Virus record (IMG/VR): IMGVR_UViG_2526164667_000023
DNA: 16,133 bases
DNA from: a virus
Taxonomy: Duplodnaviria; Heunggongvirae; Uroviricota; Caudoviricetes
Direction: 5' to 3' (one strand)
Positions 1,331 to 7,713 of this stretch are shown here, piece by piece. Made by a program: the position numbers and the translations under genes. The notes under the pieces are model-generated. The model was given only the letters and a program-made list of their open reading frames with translations, ran no database searches and was not told the DNA's origin. The stretch's first letter is position 1; every line of letters begins with the position of its first letter.

Positions 1331-1418
1331 GCTTTTTTATACTAAGTTGGCATTATAAAAAAGCATTGCTTATCAATTTGTTGCAACGAACAGGTCACTA
1401 TCAGTCAAAATAAAATCA
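1331..1418. other. Prophage attL: lambda 15-bp core GCTTTTTTATACTAA (1331-1345) followed by lambda attP P' arm
   Basis: Core and downstream sequence GTTGGCATTATAAAAAAGCATTGCTTATCAATTTGTTGCAACGAACAGGTCACTATCAGTCAAAATAAAATCATTATTTG match my recollection of lambda attP P' arm; immediately abuts the int 3' end; upstream flank ...GAAGCCT is the bacterial B arm. Confidence 0.85.
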
Positions 1419-2489
1419 TTATTTGATTTCAATTTTGTCCCACTCCCTGCCTCTGTCATCACGATACTGTGATGCCATGGTGTCCGACTTATGCCCGAGA
1501 AGATGTTGAGCAAACTTATCGCTTATCTGCTTCTCATAGAGTCTTGCAGACAAACTGCGCAACTCGTGAAAGGTCGGCGGATCCCCTTCGAAGGAAAGAC
1601 CTGATGCTTTTCGTGCGCGCATAAAATACCTTGATACTGTGCCGGATGAAAGCGGTTCACGATGAGTAGATGCAATTATGGTTTCTCCGCCAAGAATCTC
1701 TTTGCATTTATCAAGTGTTTCCTTCATTGATATCCCGAGAGCATCAACATGCAATGTTGTAGGGATGGCAATTTTTACGCCTGTTTTGCTTTGCTCGACA
1801 TAAAGATATCCATCTACGATATCAGACCACTTCATTTCGCATAAATCACCAACTCGCTGCCCGGTAACAACAGCCAGCTCCATTGCAAGTCTTAGCCAAC
1901 ATGGTGATGATTCTGCTGCTTGATAAATTTTCAGGTATTCGTCAGCCGTAAGTCTTGATCTCCTTACCTCTGATTTTGCTGCGCGAGTGGCAGCGACCGG
2001 GTTTGTTGTTATATGGCCTTCAGCTATTGCCTCTCGGAATGCATCGCTCAGTGTTGATCTGATTAACTTGGCTGACGCCGCCTTGCCCTCGTCTATGTAT
2101 CCACTGAGCATTGCCGCAATTTCTTTTGTGGTGATGTCTTCAAGTGGAGCATCAGGCAGCCCCCTCCTTATTGCTTTAATTTTGCTCATGTAATTTATGA
2201 GAGTCTTCTGCTTGATTCCTCTGCTGGCGAGGATTTTTTCGTAGCGATCAAGCCATGAATGTAACGTAACAGAATTATCACTGTTGATTCTCGCTGTCAG
2301 AGGCTTGTGTTTGTGTCCTGAAAATAACTCAATGTTGGCCTGTATTGCTTCAGTGATTGCTATCCTCCTGTCTCGGCCTAATCCAAACTCTTTACCCGTC
2401 CTTGGGTCCCTGTAGCAGTAATATCCATTGTTTCTTATATAAAGATTAGGGGGTAAATCCCGGCGCTCATGACTTCGCCTTCTTCCCAT
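1419..2489 (-). CDS. int: Tyrosine integrase, lambda Int type (356 aa)
   Basis: Protein begins MGRRRSHERRDLPPNLYIRNNGYYCYRDPRTGKEFGLGRDRR and ends ...REWDKIEIK, recalled as lambda Int; adjacent to attL; overlaps xis by 23 bp as in lambda. Confidence 0.95.
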   Translation of the reverse strand: MGRRRSHERRDLPPNLYIRNNGYYCYRDPRTGKEFGLGRDRRIAITEAIQANIELFSGHKHKPLTARINSDNSVTLHSWLDRYEKILASRGIKQKTLINYMSKIKAIRRGLPDAPLEDITTKEIAAMLSGYIDEGKAASAKLIRSTLSDAFREAIAEGHITTNPVAATRAAKSEVRRSRLTADEYLKIYQAAESSPCWLRLAMELAVVTGQRVGDLCEMKWSDIVDGYLYVEQSKTGVKIAIPTTLHVDALGISMKETLDKCKEILGGETIIASTHREPLSSGTVSRYFMRARKASGLSFEGDPPTFHELRSLSARLYEKQISDKFAQHLLGHKSDTMASQYRDDRGREWDKIEIK

Positions 2490-2685
2490 TTCTGATCCTC
2501 TTCAAAAGGCTACCTGTTACTGGTCGATTTAAGTCAACCTTTACCGCTGATTCGTGGAACAGATACTCTCTTCCATCCTTAACCGGAGGAGGGAATATCC
2601 TGCATTCGCGCACCCATCGACGAACTGTTTCAAGGCTTCTTGGGCGTCGCTGGCGTGCATTCCACTCCTGAAGTGTCAAGTACAT
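2467..2685 (-). CDS. xis: Excisionase, lambda Xis type (72 aa)
   Basis: MYLTLQEWNARQRRPRSLETVRRWVRECRIFPPPVKDGREYLFHESAVKVDLNRP... recalled as lambda Xis; position upstream of and overlapping int. Confidence 0.95.
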   Translation of the reverse strand: MYLTLQEWNARQRRPRSLETVRRWVRECRIFPPPVKDGREYLFHESAVKVDLNRPVTGSLLKRIRNGKKAKS

Positions 2686-2791
2686 CGCAAAGTCTCCGCA
2701 ATTACACGCAAGAAAAGCCGCATTGATGCGGCGATGGTAGGTCTGGATATCATTGAGCCATGAACAGGCCTCATCGAGTGTGAGGCTGTGG

Positions 2792-3136
2792 TTAGTCCTT
2801 TCGTAACTCGCTGATTCTCCTGTAAGTCTCTGGTGCTTTGTTTCCGTGTATCTTCATTTCAGACTTCAACAGAGCAACGAGGGAATCCCATTCGTTGAGG
2901 ATGCCTTTGAATGCCGGAACGCGCTTTGCAACCTTGTCGAATGAATCTCTGATTTCTGGAATCTTCTCAACAAGTGCAACGCATCGTCGGAAGTCTGCTG
3001 CGTCATGGGGAGCGCCGAAGTGATGACCATAGATATTCTTTTTCAGGCCACATGCGATTGAGGCAAGAGTTGCGCTACTGATGCCAACATCGCCAGTCGA
3101 TTGCCATTTCAAAACCTTCATAGACAAATCTGACAT
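2792..3136 (-). CDS. Hypothetical early-left protein (114 aa)
   Basis: Track ORF; GGAG about 7 nt upstream of ATG at 3136; same orientation as the operon. No family recognised with confidence. Confidence 0.7.
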   Translation of the reverse strand: MSDLSMKVLKWQSTGDVGISSATLASIACGLKKNIYGHHFGAPHDAADFRRCVALVEKIPEIRDSFDKVAKRVPAFKGILNEWDSLVALLKSEMKIHGNKAPETYRRISELRKD

Positions 3137-3164
3137 TTCTTGTCTCCAATAAAAAAAACCTCCA

Positions 3165-3332
3165 TCAGGCGGCTTGGTGTTCTTTCAGTTCTTCAATTCG
3201 AATATTGGTTACGTCTGCATGTGCTATCTGCGCCCATATCATCCAGTGGTCATAGCAGTCATTGATGTTCTCTGCTTCGATAACTCTGTTGAATGGTTCT
3301 CCATTCCATTCACCTGTGACTCGGAAGTGCAT
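3165..3332 (-). CDS. Small hypothetical protein (55 aa, MHFRVTGEWNGEPFNRVIEAENINDCYDHWMIWAQIAHADVTNIRIEELKEHQAA)
   Basis: Below track cutoff; found by manual translation; GGAG 7-8 nt upstream of ATG; fills the gap between the 114-aa gene and the ASCH-like gene. Confidence 0.4.
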   Translation of the reverse strand: MHFRVTGEWNGEPFNRVIEAENINDCYDHWMIWAQIAHADVTNIRIEELKEHQAA

Positions 3333-3404
3333 TTATCATCTCCATAAAACAAAATCCGCCGTAGCGAGTTCAGATAAAAGAAATCCCCGCGAGTGCGAGG
3401 ATTG

Positions 3405-3689
3405 TTATTCATTGCCGATATTCACCTTTATCGCGAACACCTTTACCGGTTTATCACCGAAGTGCGGATGTGTGATTGTCTTGATTTCATATCCGTCATA
3501 CGGAACATCAATTCTGCGGCTGGAATCGTCGCGCTTCGGATATCCCTTTGTGATAATCAGGCGGTCATACTCCCGGAACATAATTCGCTTATTCCAATAG
3601 TCATTACACAGGCGATACTCTTCCGTTTTCTCTCCTCGAATCATGGCATCGAAGTATTCACCTTTGACGGCAAGTTGTAGGTTAGCCAC
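3405..3689 (-). CDS. Small beta-barrel protein, ASCH/PUA-like (DUF3850-like), 94 aa
   Basis: Track ORF; N-terminal MANLQLAVKGEYFDAMIRGEKTEEYR resembles ASCH-type phage proteins as I recall them; family assignment tentative. Confidence 0.7.
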   Translation of the reverse strand: MANLQLAVKGEYFDAMIRGEKTEEYRLCNDYWNKRIMFREYDRLIITKGYPKRDDSSRRIDVPYDGYEIKTITHPHFGDKPVKVFAIKVNIGNE

Positions 3690-3984
3690 GGTTAACCTCC
3701 TGCGGAGTAGCCTTTACAAGCACTGGTGCAAATCCATCTTCATTAAGGTTATGAATATAGACTTCTGTTCTCCTGCGCTCTTCAACGTTTAATATTGTTT
3801 CTGGATCATAAACCCATACTTTCATTCGACTATTCCATGAAGAAATCGCTTCAGATCTAGTTCGTTTTTCTGGTCCTTGGGCACCACATTTGCATGACAC
3901 ATAGCGCATTTTCCCTCTGATACTGAATGAGTATCCGATGTTAAGCACAGTGGAACCACAGAATGGGCAGCGATATAGATTCAT
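3682..3984 (-). CDS. Lar-family restriction-alleviation protein with C-terminal extension (100 aa)
   Basis: Motifs CPFCGS ... CKCGAQGP ... EAISSWNSR match the Lar (Rac prophage RalR/Lar) zinc-ribbon signature; ATGA start/stop overlap with upstream gene. Confidence 0.8.
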   Translation of the reverse strand: MNLYRCPFCGSTVLNIGYSFSIRGKMRYVSCKCGAQGPEKRTRSEAISSWNSRMKVWVYDPETILNVEERRRTEVYIHNLNEDGFAPVLVKATPQEVNRG

Positions 3985-4598
3985 AAATCATCCACCTTAG
4001 GCGCAGCTGAGACAGCAACATTCCAGAACTCAGAAAACATATTGTATGCACCAGATAGATTGGAAGTAGCATACCCTCCAAGCTCACTTCTAATCTGAAC
4101 GGCTCTCATCATTTCCGGGGTTAACTCCTTCGGCACCATAACCCAACCATCCGGAGTTACCGGAGAGTTGCCACCGGGAATATTTTCCGGAATATTTTGT
4201 TGTGCGTTTTGTGGTTGTTCTGATTTACCCTGAAGCATGGCGGCGCGGCAGGCGTTCCAGCCAGCTGTTCGCCCAAGCGCGTAAACTTCAGATGGATCAA
4301 GATAATCAATGTCATGCCCGTCCTCATCGTCGTTCTCAGGTAATGCAGCAGGTACTACCGGTACTGGCGGAGCGGCGTAGACCTCAATAATTCCATTATC
4401 AATAGGCCATTCTCCATCCTTGAGGTAGTCACTTGTGCCGTCAACTTGCTGTTCTGCAATGTGGAATGCACCTATTGGTTTTGCTTCCAGCGATGCCAGA
4501 GCAATCCGTGCCAGTTCCATTTGTTCGCCACTAGTAAGTCCGTTATCAAGCGGGGATTTAATGAACAATTCGATACGTTCTTTAGTGATAGTGCTCAT
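3981..4598 (-). CDS. Hypothetical protein (205 aa from MSTITKERIELF...)
   Basis: Track ORF 3981-4697 overlaps the upstream gene; internal ATG at 4598 lies 1 nt after the upstream TGA with GGAG 8 nt upstream (AAAGGAGAGTGATATG), so 4598 is the likely start. Confidence 0.7.
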   Translation of the reverse strand: MSTITKERIELFIKSPLDNGLTSGEQMELARIALASLEAKPIGAFHIAEQQVDGTSDYLKDGEWPIDNGIIEVYAAPPVPVVPAALPENDDEDGHDIDYLDPSEVYALGRTAGWNACRAAMLQGKSEQPQNAQQNIPENIPGGNSPVTPDGWVMVPKELTPEMMRAVQIRSELGGYATSNLSGAYNMFSEFWNVAVSAAPKVDDL

Positions 4599-4599
4599 A

Positions 4600-5157
4600 T
4601 CACTCTCCTTTGATGCGAATGCCAGCTGCGCTTGCTGATTCTTCATATGCGCGTTTAGCAGCGTTAAGGATTGCTGCCAGTGGCGTATAGCCGCCATCCA
4701 TTCGGATTGTGTTGTGGATGCCAGCCATTGTGTCGCGCAATTTGCTGTGGCTAGCAGACAGTTCTGCTATGCACTTCTCTGCGGCATCGGCTCGATCTTT
4801 TTCACGCTGGAACATTTTGTGAGTGCGGTCTATAGCTTCGATTCGTGCCGCTGATGTCTTCTGCACGGCTTCAAGCTCAACACGCAGCTTCCCAACCGTA
4901 AGAGCAATATCCTCGTTCTTCTGGTCGCGGCGTTTGATGTATTGCTGGTTTCTTTCCCGTTCATCCAGTAGTGCCAGCACGGTTTCTGGCCCGGTCAGAA
5001 ATTTGAAGGCGTTGAGCGCATCAATATCCACACCGTAATCCTTAAGTTCCTGTTCAGTTAACAAATCATCATCAACTGGCAACATTAACAGGCGTTCCAT
5101 TGCCGGAATTGCACGCTCTGCCGCCTCACGCAGTGCCTGATAGTCAATCTTGCTCAT
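4600..5157 (-). CDS. Ea22-like protein (185 aa)
   Basis: N-terminus [14 protein letters not shown]..., internal LLDERERNQQYIKRRDQKNEDIALTVGKLRVELE and C-terminus AGIRIKGE match my recollection of lambda Ea22 / Ead-Ea22-like family. Confidence 0.8.
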   Translation of the reverse strand: MSKIDYQALREAAERAIPAMERLLMLPVDDDLLTEQELKDYGVDIDALNAFKFLTGPETVLALLDERERNQQYIKRRDQKNEDIALTVGKLRVELEAVQKTSAARIEAIDRTHKMFQREKDRADAAEKCIAELSASHSKLRDTMAGIHNTIRMDGGYTPLAAILNAAKRAYEESASAAGIRIKGE

Positions 5158-5711
5158 TGGATGACTCCTTTACGAAGCTGTTCGGCGATATCTTCGAGAA
5201 CGCCATCAGAGAATGAACGGTCAAAATCGCCTTCCGGCGCATTGGCCATAAACTCAGTAGAGGTAAGAATCATCCGGGCAATATCAGCGGCGTTCTTCGC
5301 AGTATCATCAATAAAACCAGCTTCCCAGGCAGCCAGCATTCTGTTCGCCACAAAGTAAGCGCCCTCCTTGCGTGCTTCAGTCTTCACTTCAGCCAGAAAA
5401 GCATCGGTGGCTGGGGTTTCAGTAATATCATCTTCCCATTCGCTAAACTCCTCACGACAAAAGTCATTAAATTCCTTCTCAGATTGCTTAAGCGAGGAAT
5501 TTTCAGCAGCCATCTTCGCGCATTTAGCCTCAAGGTTATCAATCGTGATTCCAGCAGAACGACACTCCCGCAACGCCGTTTCTAGTTTTGATTCAAGTTC
5601 ACCGAACTTACGGACAAGATATTCATCGTTTGTTTCGTCAACCTTTAAATCACTTGGGATGCATTTACCTTTCAGAAAACCATCCATCTCAATTAGTGTC
5701 ATTTGTTTCAT
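5154..5711 (-). CDS. Hypothetical acidic coiled-coil protein (about 185 aa)
   Basis: Track ORF starts at GTG 5729; ATG at 5711 overlaps the upstream stop as ATGA and is preferred. Start uncertain. Confidence 0.65.
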
Positions 5712-5872
5712 TTCTTCCCACTCCGCCACATCGCATTCAGATATTTGTTGTCATTAACAGAACCGAAACTCTTTCTCTTAAGCAATTCCTCTCTCGATGG
5801 CATTGGCTTTGCGCGTTGGCGAATAATCATTTCTGCCGGAAGAATGCCGGGATTGTATGCAAGTCCTCTCAT
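5708..5872 (-). CDS. Small hypothetical protein (54 aa, [15 protein letters not shown]...)
   Basis: Track ORF 5708-6022 overlaps the upstream gene; the internal ATG is preceded by TGAGGAATTTACC, i.e. upstream stop, GAGGAA Shine-Dalgarno, 6-nt spacer, ATG. Exact start uncertain. Confidence 0.4.
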
Positions 5873-5882
5873 GGTAAATTCC

Positions 5883-6176
5883 TCAGTCATTACTGATAGC
5901 GCCATAGCGTGAGCGGTAATTACGCAGGCGCGGGTCAATTTCAGGGAAGTGGGTATATGTGGCTTTGCGGAATGGTCGGATTGATGTCTGGTAAATTCGC
6001 TCGCGTTCTTCTTTCTCTGCAAGCCATATACAATGGCGAAATTCCTTTTCCTCTTTCGTTTCCTGCGGTAGCGACATTATCCGATCGTAGTTTTTTCTGA
6101 ATTTATCCAGCACCTCCGATACGGAATTGCCGGAACAGCGGCGCGCGTCATCCGCACCATACAGAGGCGCTGGCAT
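5883..6176 (-). CDS. Hypothetical protein (97 aa)
   Basis: Track ORF in operon orientation; no family recognised. Confidence 0.65.
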
Positions 6177-6199
6177 AATTAAATCCTTATTTTTCTAAA

Positions 6200-6583
6200 T
6201 CAGAATGGGATGGAATCGTCGTATACAGGAGTGTTCTGCTGGTTACTACTTTGCTGCTGCGGGCCATTTCCTGAAGCTGCAAATCCAATCTTTGCATTCA
6301 GTAATTCAAGAGTGATTGATTGACCATTTTGCCCCTGATAAACATCAACCCTGATGTTTTCTCCGGTAATTTCCACAATGCCACCTTCAACAAGAACACT
6401 ACGGTAGTAATCCGCTTGCGCTCCCGGCTTGGCAAATACAACGGCGCTGTAGTTTGTCCATTCTTTCTTTTTTGTCTGGCGATCGTAATACTGAACGCCA
6501 GCACGGATGTTGAATCCGATATTTTCCCCGGTCTGAAACTCTCTTGCGGGCTTGTTTAGTCTTACAGTAATCGAATGTGCCAT
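6200..6583 (-). CDS. ssb: Short phage single-stranded DNA-binding protein (127 aa) with acidic C-terminal tail ...PVYDDSIPF
   Basis: C-terminal D-D-x-I-P-F tail typical of bacterial/phage SSBs; start MAHSITV at ATG 6583 overlaps the erf stop as TAATG; the track's longer 157-aa form would overlap erf. Confidence 0.8.
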   Translation of the reverse strand: MAHSITVRLNKPAREFQTGENIGFNIRAGVQYYDRQTKKKEWTNYSAVVFAKPGAQADYYRSVLVEGGIVEITGENIRVDVYQGQNGQSITLELLNAKIGFAASGNGPQQQSSNQQNTPVYDDSIPF

Positions 6584-7188
6584 TAAGCAGCAGCTCCTTC
6601 TAATTCGTCTCGTCTGATGTTGTAAACGTCCTGCGCTTTGTGCTGCTCCGGTGTACCTTCGAGCATCTTCCACGCTTTGGCGAACGCCTGTTTAAGCTCT
6701 TCTACGGTGTTTTTCTGCATTGCTGCGTCAGTGAATGCTTTTAGAACCTGTTCAGGTGTAGGTGATGGTTTTGATTGCTTTGCTGCTGCGTTCTGCTGAT
6801 GTTTATGCTCGTCGGTATCTGCATCTTTCGCATCATCAATGCCGAATAAACCATTGAGGCAATACTTGCGTGCATAAGAGCTTGTAGCTCCCGTAACTTG
6901 TGCAGAATCCATTCCTTTCTTGCTTTCTTCCTCTCGTGCAAGAGCGGTTGCCGTATGACTGTTTTCGCCATCGGTAATAGTTGCCGTGGCTTTCACATAA
7001 TACCGATCACCAATCAACACAACTTCATCGCTGATTGATAAAAACAGGCCATTCAGTAACGGCTTAACGCCTTCAAGAATATCTTCGCAGCTTCTGTATT
7101 TATATTTGCCGAATGAGTTGTACTGATTCTTTGGCGCGTTCAGATTCTCCTGAATAGCTGCCAGTCTTGCGTAAAATTCTTTGCTCAT
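6583..7188 (-). CDS. erf: Erf-family single-strand annealing recombinase (P22 Erf-like, 201 aa)
   Basis: MSKEFYARLAAIQENLNAPKNQYNSFGKYKYRSCEDILEGVKPLL... matches my recollection of P22 Erf; track start 7218 is a TTG, and ATG 7188 gives the canonical N-terminus. Confidence 0.85.
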   Translation of the reverse strand: MSKEFYARLAAIQENLNAPKNQYNSFGKYKYRSCEDILEGVKPLLNGLFLSISDEVVLIGDRYYVKATATITDGENSHTATALAREEESKKGMDSAQVTGATSSYARKYCLNGLFGIDDAKDADTDEHKHQQNAAAKQSKPSPTPEQVLKAFTDAAMQKNTVEELKQAFAKAWKMLEGTPEQHKAQDVYNIRRDELEGAAA

Positions 7189-7198
7189 ATGATTGTTC

Positions 7199-7369
7199 TC
7201 AGAATGGACACGGCCCAAGGAAATAACGCTGATTTAATACTTCGACTCGGGACAAATTAAGGCATACCCGCATTCCTTCGCGGTCACCATTATGGCGATA
7301 CCAGAGAGCTTTCTGCGTGTACATGCGCCTCTGTAACTTGCTCTCCTTCACTGTGGTTGCAAGTGACAT
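7199..7369 (-). CDS. Possible small basic protein (56 aa, MSLATTVKESKLQRRMYTQKALWYRHNGDREGMRVCLNLSRVEVLNQRYFLGPCPF)
   Basis: GAAGGAG 7 nt upstream of ATG; stop lies 8 nt before erf ATG; but overlaps the 7290-7448 ORF by about 80 nt in another frame, so one of the two may be spurious. Confidence 0.3.
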   Translation of the reverse strand: MSLATTVKESKLQRRMYTQKALWYRHNGDREGMRVCLNLSRVEVLNQRYFLGPCPF

Positions 7370-7448
7370 GAATATCTCCTTCGTTACCGATTAATTCTTT
7401 CATCTGACGAATGAATTCTTCGTCTGACCAGTTATCTGTAAAACTCAT
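7290..7448 (-). CDS. Small acidic protein (52 aa, MSFTDNWSDEEFIRQMKELIGNEGDIHVTCNHSEGEQVTEAHVHAESSLVSP)
   Basis: ATG overlaps stop of the Kil-like gene as ATGA; occupies the position of P22 arf between kil and erf. Confidence 0.4.
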   Translation of the reverse strand: MSFTDNWSDEEFIRQMKELIGNEGDIHVTCNHSEGEQVTEAHVHAESSLVSP

Positions 7449-7597
7449 TTCCTGCGATAACACGGAAGGTTGATAGCTGATTTCATCGCTTTATTTGCTT
7501 CAAGCCACATTTTTGAATCACCAATAAATCGGGCTATTACTGCCTTGTTCTGTGCAGCACGAAGCATCTGGTGATTGATGGCTATTTCATTGCGCAT
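7445..7597 (-). CDS. kil: Kil-like peptide (50 aa, MRNEIAINHQMLRAAQNKAVIARFIGDSKMWLEANKAMKSAINLPCYRRK)
   Basis: IARFIGDSKMWLEA resembles the lambda Kil core as I recall it; GAGG 8 nt upstream; positioned between cIII-like and recombination genes as in lambda and P22. Confidence 0.5.
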   Translation of the reverse strand: MRNEIAINHQMLRAAQNKAVIARFIGDSKMWLEANKAMKSAINLPCYRRK

Positions 7598-7713
7598 AAT
7601 AAGACCTCAACTCTTTTCCATCCGTCACGTAATTTACGGGTGATTCGTTCAAGTAAAGATTCATTTAATTGGAAGGCACCCATGCGAGCGCCTCCCGCGA
7701 TTGCGTAAATCAT
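7582..7713 (-). CDS. cIII: CIII-like FtsH-inhibitor peptide (43 aa, MIYAIAGGARMGAFQLNESLLERITRKLRDGWKRVEVLLCAMK)
   Basis: ESLLERITRKLRDGWKR is the conserved amphipathic core of lambda CIII; AAGGAA 7 nt upstream of ATG. Not on ORF track (under 60 aa). Confidence 0.75.
   Translation of the reverse strand: MIYAIAGGARMGAFQLNESLLERITRKLRDGWKRVEVLLCAMK

Follow-up and report, generated by a model that had tools for sequence, protein, structure and literature searches.

In the 16,133-nt window analyzed here, from IMG/VR virus record IMGVR_UViG_2526164667_000023, the segment at 2792-6176 carries nine successive open reading frames (ORFs) between the excisionase gene xis and the recombination genes. 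All nine lie on the minus strand, and all coordinates given are those of the whole window. From the recombination genes toward xis, they are the following.

5883-6176, minus strand: abc2, for anti-RecBCD protein 2 (97 aa); PF11043 at 209.6 bits over its full length, phrog_656, PDB 8b1t/8b1u
5708-5872, minus strand: DUF2737 family gene (54 aa); PF10930 at 98.3 bits; homologue of HK97 gp38 and Sf6 gp23
5154-5711, minus strand: gene for an EaE-like acidic protein (185 aa, pI 4.4, net charge -17.5); phrog_614 at 2.9e-79
4600-5157, minus strand: gene for an Ead/Ea22-like protein (185 aa); PF13935 at 104.5 bits, residues 2-131
3981-4598, minus strand: gene for an EaA-like mosaic acidic protein (205 aa, p205; pI 4.2, net charge -18), with an EaA-type N terminus and an Sf6 gp21-like C-terminal part
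3682-3984, minus strand: gene for a Lar-family protein (100 aa), with a Lar domain at residues 2-53 and a 47-aa C-terminal extension; orthologue of Sf6 gp20
3405-3689, minus strand: gene for a putative ASCH-like (PUA-like beta-barrel) protein (94 aa), with a GTG start behind AGGAGG; phrog_625
3165-3332, minus strand: orf55 (55 aa); 100% identical over 55 aa to lambda lambdap35 (NP_597778); phrog_676
2792-3136, minus strand: p114 (114 aa), of a large phage family that has no Pfam or NCBIfam model; matches phrog_1229 only

We conclude that the nine ORFs are real genes and that their tight packing is real. They give 2792-6176 a coding share of 96.7%, ORF coverage on the single strand is 0.99 (300 dinucleotide shuffles average 0.61 and reach 0.86 at most), and a Shine-Dalgarno (SD)-like motif lies 10-14 nt upstream of every start (9/9). 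The ratio of nonsynonymous to synonymous differences (pN/pS), taken against equal-length phage orthologues of the shared genes, runs from 0.08 to 0.58 and is mostly at or below 0.3, on small counts, and the exact protein sequences each recur on ~1000 public contigs. This combination of density, SD motifs, low pN/pS, and exact recurrence is what supports their standing as genes; no frameshift or internal stop is present in any of the nine. RefSeq, through its Prokaryotic Genome Annotation Pipeline (PGAP), makes the uninterrupted ORFs 3682-3984, 3981-4598, and 4600-5157 partial pseudogenes in NC_013361, with 3981-4598 present only as a pseudogene fragment. The 185-aa Ea22-like and 205-aa EaA-like ORFs are annotated at full length on about 1000 other contigs, and it is probable that automatic annotation erred in calling the Lar-like, EaA-like, and Ea22-like ORFs pseudogenes.

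The junctions between the genes, and the hairpins that lie among them, are as follows.

5708-5711, minus strand: ATGA overlap of the DUF2737 stop and the EaE-like start
5154-5157, minus strand: ATGA overlap of the EaE-like stop and the Ea22-like start
4596-4602, minus strand: TGA-T-ATG junction of the Ea22-like stop and the EaA-like start, within the conserved boundary sequence 4590-4626
3981-3984, minus strand: ATGA overlap of the EaA-like stop and the Lar-like start
3682-3689, minus strand: 8-nt overlap GTGGCTAA of the ASCH-like GTG start and the Lar-like TAA stop, with AGGAGG at -12
3382-3403, minus strand: hairpin resembling a terminator, with UUUCUUUUAU after it; lies between the ASCH-like gene and orf55; free energy (dG) -13.4 kcal/mol, z -3.9, U-rich tail
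2717-2732, minus strand: GC-rich terminator-like hairpin GCCGCATCAATGCGGC that adjoins a T-run; upstream of xis, at the p114 cassette's 3' end; dG -10.5 kcal/mol, z -1.8 (weak)

The three ATGA overlaps were read directly. A first-pass annotation of this DNA, made from the letters alone, had placed nine small genes on one strand between xis and the recombination genes and had given these overlaps exactly; both points hold. It had also reported a TGA-N-ATG junction, which exists, at 4596-4602 rather than at 4598-4602, and it had overlooked the 8-nt overlap at 3682-3689. The 378-aa profile phrog_14548 spans both EaE-like and Ea22-like N-terminal sequences, and therefore an in-frame fusion of the two proteins replaces the ATGA junction in some phages.

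A scan of 2400-7400 for promoter-like sigma-70 sites returned one, on the noncoding strand, compared to 7.0 +/- 2.8 in shuffles; none fell on the minus strand, although a simple consensus scan of this kind could miss a weak promoter. Such depletion is consistent with a long read-through transcription unit. The intergenic segment around the 3382-3403 hairpin is conserved in other phages, over window positions 3335-3411 in Sf6, 3371-3409 in HK106, and 3153-3408 in lambda. Positions 3335-3411 correspond to about 29,290-29,361 of lambda, and the gene upstream differs in lambda, Sf6, and HK106. This segment, with its hairpin, behaves as a portable boundary element. The idea that the hairpin is lambda tL3 was dropped, as the literature names tL3 without coordinates and tL3 lies elsewhere, just downstream of exo. 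Rfam and tRNA scans of the whole window gave no matches.

Turning to the individual products, the 97-aa protein is recognizable as Abc2. Along its whole length (residues 1-97 of 97) it aligns with PDB 8b1t, "Anti-RecBCD protein 2," at 194 bits, and RefSeq names it "phage anti-RecBCD protein." At ~90% identity over the full-length 97-aa alignment to the P22 protein solved in complex (8b1t/8b1u), it would be expected to bind RecC and modify RecBCD. As in P22, the gene adjoins erf; abc1 of P22 is replaced in this prophage by an SSB-like gene. The abc2 gene thus belongs with the two genes beside it, with which it forms the recombination module.

6200-6583, minus strand: SSB-like gene (127 aa); phrog_44, "single strand DNA binding protein"
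6583-7188, minus strand: erf; RefSeq "ERF family protein"

The 54-aa DUF2737 protein that follows abc2 is 98% identical to HK106 gp34, and the exact protein is found on about 1000 contigs.

Three larger proteins make up the middle of the segment. The EaE-like protein shares 79% identity with HK106 gp33 over residues 1-143 and 42-43% with the "EaE" proteins of 720R6 and HF4s. The Ea22-like protein, whose exact sequence carries the annotation "ead/Ea22-like family protein" on about 1000 contigs, shares with lambda Ea22 the Ea22 segment at the N terminus and the coiled coil at the center; its residues 56-96 are nearly identical to residues 33-73 of the lambda protein, and the last 8 aa (AGIRIKGE) are identical. 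The lambda-type mixed alpha/beta C-terminal domain was not found in it, as the two proteins cannot be aligned after about residue 100, save for those last 8 residues. Ea22 has been described as a mosaic, with variable C-terminal domains typical of the Ea22 variants of Shiga toxin (Stx) phages (PMC10834534), and the difference fits this published picture. The EaA-like protein is also composite, with 64% identity of residues 71-205 to Sf6 gp21 residues 99-226 and 29% identity of residues 1-159 to HF4s EaA; it matches phrog_60, among others, and its exact sequence is found on 998 contigs under the name "Eaa protein." When the window proteins were compared all against all by BLASTP, no ea-type gene emerged as a paralogue of another.

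The Lar-like protein scores above both applicable cutoffs, with 58.7 bits to TIGR03655 (cutoff, 39.6) and 35.7 bits to PF14354 (cutoff, 28.6) over profile positions 2-57 of 58. Four cysteines of a zinc ribbon (C6, C9, C31, and C33) and W50-N-S-R align with the CPFCG ... WNKR of Rac Lar. Like Rac Lar (RalR), the protein has a four-Cys zinc-ribbon Lar domain and its gene lies in a lambdoid early-left operon near recombination genes; identity is 34%, with the CPFCG and WN.R motifs kept. The two differ in size: Rac Lar is a small single-domain protein of 64 aa, whereas the protein here has 100 aa, including 47 extra C-terminal residues. RefSeq splits the ORF into a "partial Lar" and a 47-aa ORF. 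The split is probably an annotation artifact, because Sf6 gp20 has the same architecture and equal length at 97% identity; full-length 100-aa "Lar family" entries occur on 999 contigs.

The activity expected of the Lar family is relief of EcoKI-type restriction together with enhanced modification; what its founding member, Rac Lar, does is disputed. Restriction alleviation was reported for Rac Lar (King & Murray 1995); the same protein was later described as a nonspecific DNase toxin, RalR, paired with the small RNA (sRNA) RalA and stated not to inhibit restriction-modification (R-M) (PMC4041452), and the K-12 annotation calls it "endodeoxyribonuclease toxin RalR." It is plausible, and to us most likely, that the Lar-like protein modulates type I R-M, an assignment by homology at 34% identity to a contested founder.

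The ASCH identity of the 94-aa protein is weakly supported. The Pfam ASCH model (PF04266) scores 14.3 bits against a cutoff of 21.2, with only residues 6-28 aligned, and no NCBIfam model matches, whereas NCBI names close homologues "ASCH domain-containing protein." In an AlphaFold2 (AF2) model with a mean predicted local distance difference test (pLDDT) score of 84, where 2 of 5 models were confident, the top Foldseek matches in the PDB were of the ASCH fold in 12 of 13 cases (3iuw, 5gus, YqfB 9kyh, and small archaeal structural-genomics proteins), although these were weak (best E, 9.6e-3; TM, 0.42-0.57).

With these identities in hand, the family assignments of the first-pass annotation can be revised. 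Its Lar-family and Ea22-like calls are upheld by the models above, and its ASCH-like call falls short in Pfam and finds weak backing in the fold search. The products that it had left without a recognizable family can mostly be placed: the 97-aa protein is Abc2, which had been set outside the recombination module; the possible 54-aa peptide is a DUF2737 protein; the 55-aa protein is lambdap35; the 205-aa protein goes by "Eaa/EaA" in public records; and the second protein of ~185 aa has phrog_614 and "EaE" matches.

The 114-aa product has homologues and no name. An exhaustive HMMER search returned homologues in 1877 representative clusters (at 50% identity) at E<=1e-3, and tblastn found them in 277 phage records, all "hypothetical," from Vibrio, Salmonella, Escherichia, Klebsiella, Mannheimia, Gordonia, Arthrobacter, and others; the range of the family includes phages of Clavibacter. 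Across a 69-sequence alignment, G18, S20, P43, D45, D48, R51, C52, and W83 are invariant. None of the 69 members has a Pfam match or a meaningful NCBIfam match, and a PDB profile search with the alignment found nothing. The AF2 model has seven helices at pLDDT 96.1, a predicted fold with no match among solved structures. Among 35 longer homologues there was no informative fusion partner, the fusions to ERF and to dATP/dGTP-pyrophosphohydrolase being single Escherichia coli chimeras. The neighborhoods of distant homologues are arrays of small unannotated early genes, with no functional partner recurring consistently among them; two cases have an RdgC-type recombination gene immediately upstream, and one Mannheimia phage has an integrase gene two genes downstream.

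Comparison to known phages shows how the segment is pieced together. In BLASTN searches against HK022, 720R6, HF4s, HK106, Sf6, and lambda, a left block (2400-3705) and a right block (5598-7300) are common to HK022, 720R6, HF4s, or HK106, and the middle has only 31-113-bp matches to other phages, mostly at gene junctions (4590-4626, 5116-5157, 4869-4983, and 4143-4173). The Ea22-like/EaA-like junction at 4590-4626 finds a 31-37-bp match in HK022, 720R6, and lambda, where the flanking genes are different. Gene 3' ends that carry the SD motif and start of the next gene are conserved with the neighboring block, as seen up to 3705. Two further features belong to this picture.

5116-5157, minus strand: boundary sequence at the start of the Ea22-like gene (its first 42 nt); 97.6% match to Sf6 3431-3472, annotated "bsq3; boundary sequence"; a mosaic joint
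2717-3152, minus strand: 436-bp p114 cassette, inserted between orf55 and xis; HK022 and 720R6 have it, lambda and HK106 do not

The pattern is recognizable as classic lambdoid mosaicism, with recombination at gene boundaries. Homology to lambda ends at 2716 and resumes at 3153, and that to HK106 likewise, so that the edges of the p114 cassette are sharp; the cassette carries its own SD motif and a 3' hairpin that abuts a preexisting T-run. Because it is absent from lambda and HK106 with sharp edges and brings the hairpin next to a T-run, we regard the cassette as a moron-like insertion. It differs from a classical moron (promoter-gene-terminator) in that the simple consensus scan detected no promoter of its own.

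The closest counterparts of the whole arrangement are the "ea" regions of P22-like and HK022/HK97-like phages, namely, Sf6 genes 19-25, the HK022 region, HK106 gp28-35, and the EaA-EaD-EaE region of HF4s. They share the order erf, ssb-like gene, abc2, DUF2737, mosaic genes of the EaE/Ea22/EaA type, small genes, xis, and int. The left and right blocks of HK022, 720R6, or HK106 are 94-98% identical to those of this prophage, and Sf6 contributes the match of the Lar-like protein to gp20 (97%) and bsq3, common to both. These relatives differ in gene content, as only Stx1a prophages and phages of the O26 type, in 4 phage records and 116 genomes, have the complete set of the Lar-like gene and this EaA-like, Ea22-like, and EaE-like gene. 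The lambda exo-xis region is alike in its position and orientation in the pL operon, from recombination genes to xis, in an identical orf55, and in the N terminus and coiled coil of Ea22. It differs in that orf60a/63/61/73 and ea8.5 are absent here, erf and abc2 stand in place of exo/bet/gam, the C-terminal domain of Ea22 is unlike, and the p114 cassette is an extra between orf55 and xis. A search for the lambda cassette orf60a-orf63-orf61-orf73 gave no DUF1317, DUF1382, or TraR/DksA matches and no DNA match to lambda 30,400-31,350. Phage accessory regions and morons are alike in having a hypervariable gene set bounded by conserved genes.

The stretch is well represented in sequenced genomes. 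[quoted passage not shown] Over the same positions, identity to the Stx1a-converting phages of four deposited records (LC744181-4) is 99.9%, and at least 80% of the stretch is found in one piece in 116 of 5426 complete E. coli genomes. On the integrase side, the segment is flanked by ybhC, a lambda-type integrase gene (1419-2489), and xis; on the opposite side lie the SSB-like gene, erf, kil, cIII, a TolA-like gene, two insertion sequences (ISs), sieB, N, cI, cro, and cII. Window 1331-2716, which covers the att core, int, and xis, corresponds to lambda 27,724-29,109 at 97.9% identity.

2467-2685, minus strand: xis, the downstream limit of the operon segment; RefSeq "excisionase"; within the att-int-xis DNA that is 97.9% identical to lambda

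Given ybhC, int, and xis on one flank, early genes on the other, and the lambda match over att-int-xis, the window is identified as the left arm of a lambdoid prophage sitting at the lambda attachment site beside ybhC. We consider it probable that 2792-6176 forms the accessory segment nearest int in the leftward early (pL) operon of an Stx1a prophage that is a mosaic of lambda, HK022, P22, and Sf6, and that it is the P22/HK022-type (Sf6-type) counterpart of the lambda exo-xis ("ea") region.

On this reading, transcription would start after infection or induction at pL, upstream of N (12820-13164) and between N and the immunity genes. N would render the polymerase resistant to termination, allowing it to pass through kil and cIII, erf, the SSB-like gene, and abc2 and then to cross the eight small genes, past the hairpins at 3403-3382 and 2732-2717, into xis-int. 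Ribosomes would be handed from gene to gene by translational coupling at the ATGA, GTGGCTAA, and TGAnATG junctions, every one of which has an SD motif of its own. The gene set would have been put together by recombination at short conserved gene-boundary sequences, which would be why gene content varies from phage to phage. As to the products, Abc2 would bind RecBCD and redirect it for Erf-dependent recombination, as shown for the ~90%-identical P22 protein; by homology, the Lar-like zinc-ribbon protein would modulate type I R-M and the Ea22-like protein would tilt the decision toward lysogeny; and the DUF2737, EaE-like, EaA-like, ASCH-like, orf55, and p114 proteins would be dispensable modulators with no assignable activity.

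Several points weigh against this account. The dependence on pL and N and the translational coupling are inferred from lambda. Two terminator-like hairpins, at 3382-3403 and 2717-2732, lie within the segment, and an IS3-family element (8969-10242) and an IS100-like element (10401-12202) between N and the cluster could reduce read-through. PGAP flags three of the ORFs as partial or as pseudogenes, six of the nine products are without functional evidence, and the activity of the founding Lar protein, from Rac, is disputed.

Within this framework, what the genes are for could be answered in other ways. One is that the block is mainly a modulator of the lysis-lysogeny decision and of host physiology, like lambda exo-xis, rather than an antidefense block; we regard this as possible but doubtful. 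The position equals that of the lambda exo-xis region, and an Ea22 homologue and lambda orf55 are both present. The exo-xis genes of lambda and Stx phages have published effects on lysogenization and induction (PMC3824215, PMC7093339), and Ea22 is described as a prolysogenic factor in these phages (PMC7093339, PMC10834534). The Ea22-like protein here most likely biases the decision toward lysogeny, as suggested by homology to the N-terminal and coiled-coil part alone. The conserved lambda orf60a-orf63-orf61-orf73 cassette is nevertheless absent, the Ea22 C-terminal domain is unlike that of lambda, and Abc2 and Lar point instead to interference with host nucleases and R-M.

Those two proteins are the starting point for a stronger form of the first-pass reading, that the block is a dedicated antirestriction or antidefense island in which most of the proteins of unassigned function each inactivate a host defense; the Lar-like protein would then inhibit type I R-M, for example, and the very acidic EaA-like and EaE-like proteins would mimic DNA. 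We judge this unlikely. Besides Abc2 and a Lar-family gene, it can call on the hypervariability between related phages, as in counterdefense hotspots, and on the acidity of p205 and the EaE-like protein (pI 4.2-4.4; net charge, about -18), which recalls DNA-mimic antirestriction proteins. Ocr and ArdA are acidic DNA mimics of this kind. For the EaA-like and EaE-like proteins, such mimicry is a lead, not evidence; acidity by itself is a weak guide, and acidic C-terminal-domain surfaces also appear in the Ea22 study with no defense role shown (PMC10834534). A PADLOC scan of ten proteins for a link to defense gave only two coiled-coil-type chance matches (E, 3.5e-3 and 8.8e-3), and no PADLOC, Pfam, or NCBIfam model for defense or antidefense was matched except by the Lar-like protein and Abc2. 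A PDB sequence search with the p114, ASCH-like, Lar-like, p205, Ea22-like, and EaE-like proteins found nothing below an E of 0.07. Moreover, Ea22, the sole studied relative among the remaining genes, has a lysogeny phenotype, and the antirestriction role of Rac Lar is contested. The antidefense and lysis-lysogeny views are equally well supported and are not mutually exclusive.

The first-pass annotation had proposed a candidate antirestriction and host-takeover cluster in a variable lambdoid region where antidefense and host-modulating genes collect. The general statement agrees with a report that phage accessory regions are places where counterdefense genes accumulate, abc2 included (bioRxiv 10.1101/2023.04.06.535777). 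At this locus, the term antidefense cluster holds for Abc2, which had gone unrecognized, and plausibly for the Lar-like gene. The host-takeover genes proper, kil and cIII, are found outside the interval, at 7445-7713.

That the Lar-like product is a DNase toxin of the RalR type, one half of a type I toxin-antitoxin pair, rather than a restriction alleviator is very unlikely. The case for a toxin comes from the K-12 annotation and the RalR/RalA study (PMC4041452), together with the 34% identity of the Lar domain to RalR. A search of the window for RalA-like sequence, which covered RalA-like sequences and Rfam families and so had non-homologous sRNAs outside its reach, gave only chance-level 10-16-nt matches, the best of 14-16 nt at E 0.02 or worse and elsewhere in the window, and no Rfam family. 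The gene stands in line with overlapping operon neighbors and not beside an antisense RNA gene, and the 47-aa extension is missing from RalR.

That the block is decaying prophage DNA, with several ORFs being pseudogene fragments made by recombination and silenced by the upstream IS insertions, is highly improbable. In its favor, the Lar-like, p205, and Ea22-like regions are incomplete according to PGAP, the operon is broken upstream by two IS elements, and p205 and the Ea22-like protein are chimeric relative to homologues. Against it, the reading frames are free of frameshifts and internal stops, the Lar-like ORF matches Sf6 gp20 in length at 97% identity, the Ea22-like ORF retains the exact C-terminal end of lambda Ea22, the identical stretch is present in Stx1a-converting phage records, purifying selection is seen where measurable, and N antitermination is classically said to suppress IS polarity.

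Other features of the window lie upstream in the same arm. The tandem insertion sequences in the pL operon, both on the minus strand between sieB/N and the TolA-like gene, are an IS3-family element (IS2-like orfA/orfB) at 8969-10242 and an IS21-family element (IS100-like istA/istB) at 10401-12202. None of the complete E. coli genomes of the collection has both elements at this place, the best matches covering 68% with one IS only; strain 11368 has an IS600 at a different site instead. The TolA-like gene, a 286-aa ORF at 7738-8598 (minus strand) that bears the annotation "cell envelope biogenesis protein TolA," is extremely rich in repeats of E/A/K/R; its frame is intact in this window, whereas strain 11368 has a pseudogene interrupted by an internal stop. 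Downstream of kil/cIII, HF4s has at the equivalent place a gene whose annotation is phi80 Agt-like "Gam antitoxin," a correspondence in position. On the opposite strand, sieB (superinfection exclusion B; 12326-12796, plus strand) adjoins N, and a 120-aa ORF at 13699-14061 (minus strand) lies downstream of cI at the lambda rex position; these two are likely defense or exclusion genes expressed in the lysogen.

As the accessory segment of a lambdoid early operon, the locus has already been sequenced and annotated, and it belongs to a textbook type of region. It adds little in itself, since more than 100 complete genomes and published Stx1a phages have it and abc2 and the Lar-like gene, the two genes that can be interpreted, are already annotated. 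Its reading does mean that abc2 is to be counted with the recombination module. The more speculative prospect lies with p114, which may represent, as the first member to come into view, a hitherto undescribed family of phage proteins whose conservation would suggest an enzyme or a specific ligand- or partner-binding site. With the gene being a mobile cassette in an early operon, a factor of host defense or DNA metabolism could be what it targets; this conjecture, to which DNA mimicry by the acidic EaA-like and EaE-like proteins is secondary, seems to us quite improbable as it stands. The p114 family, for its part, is a sizeable gap in current domain libraries.

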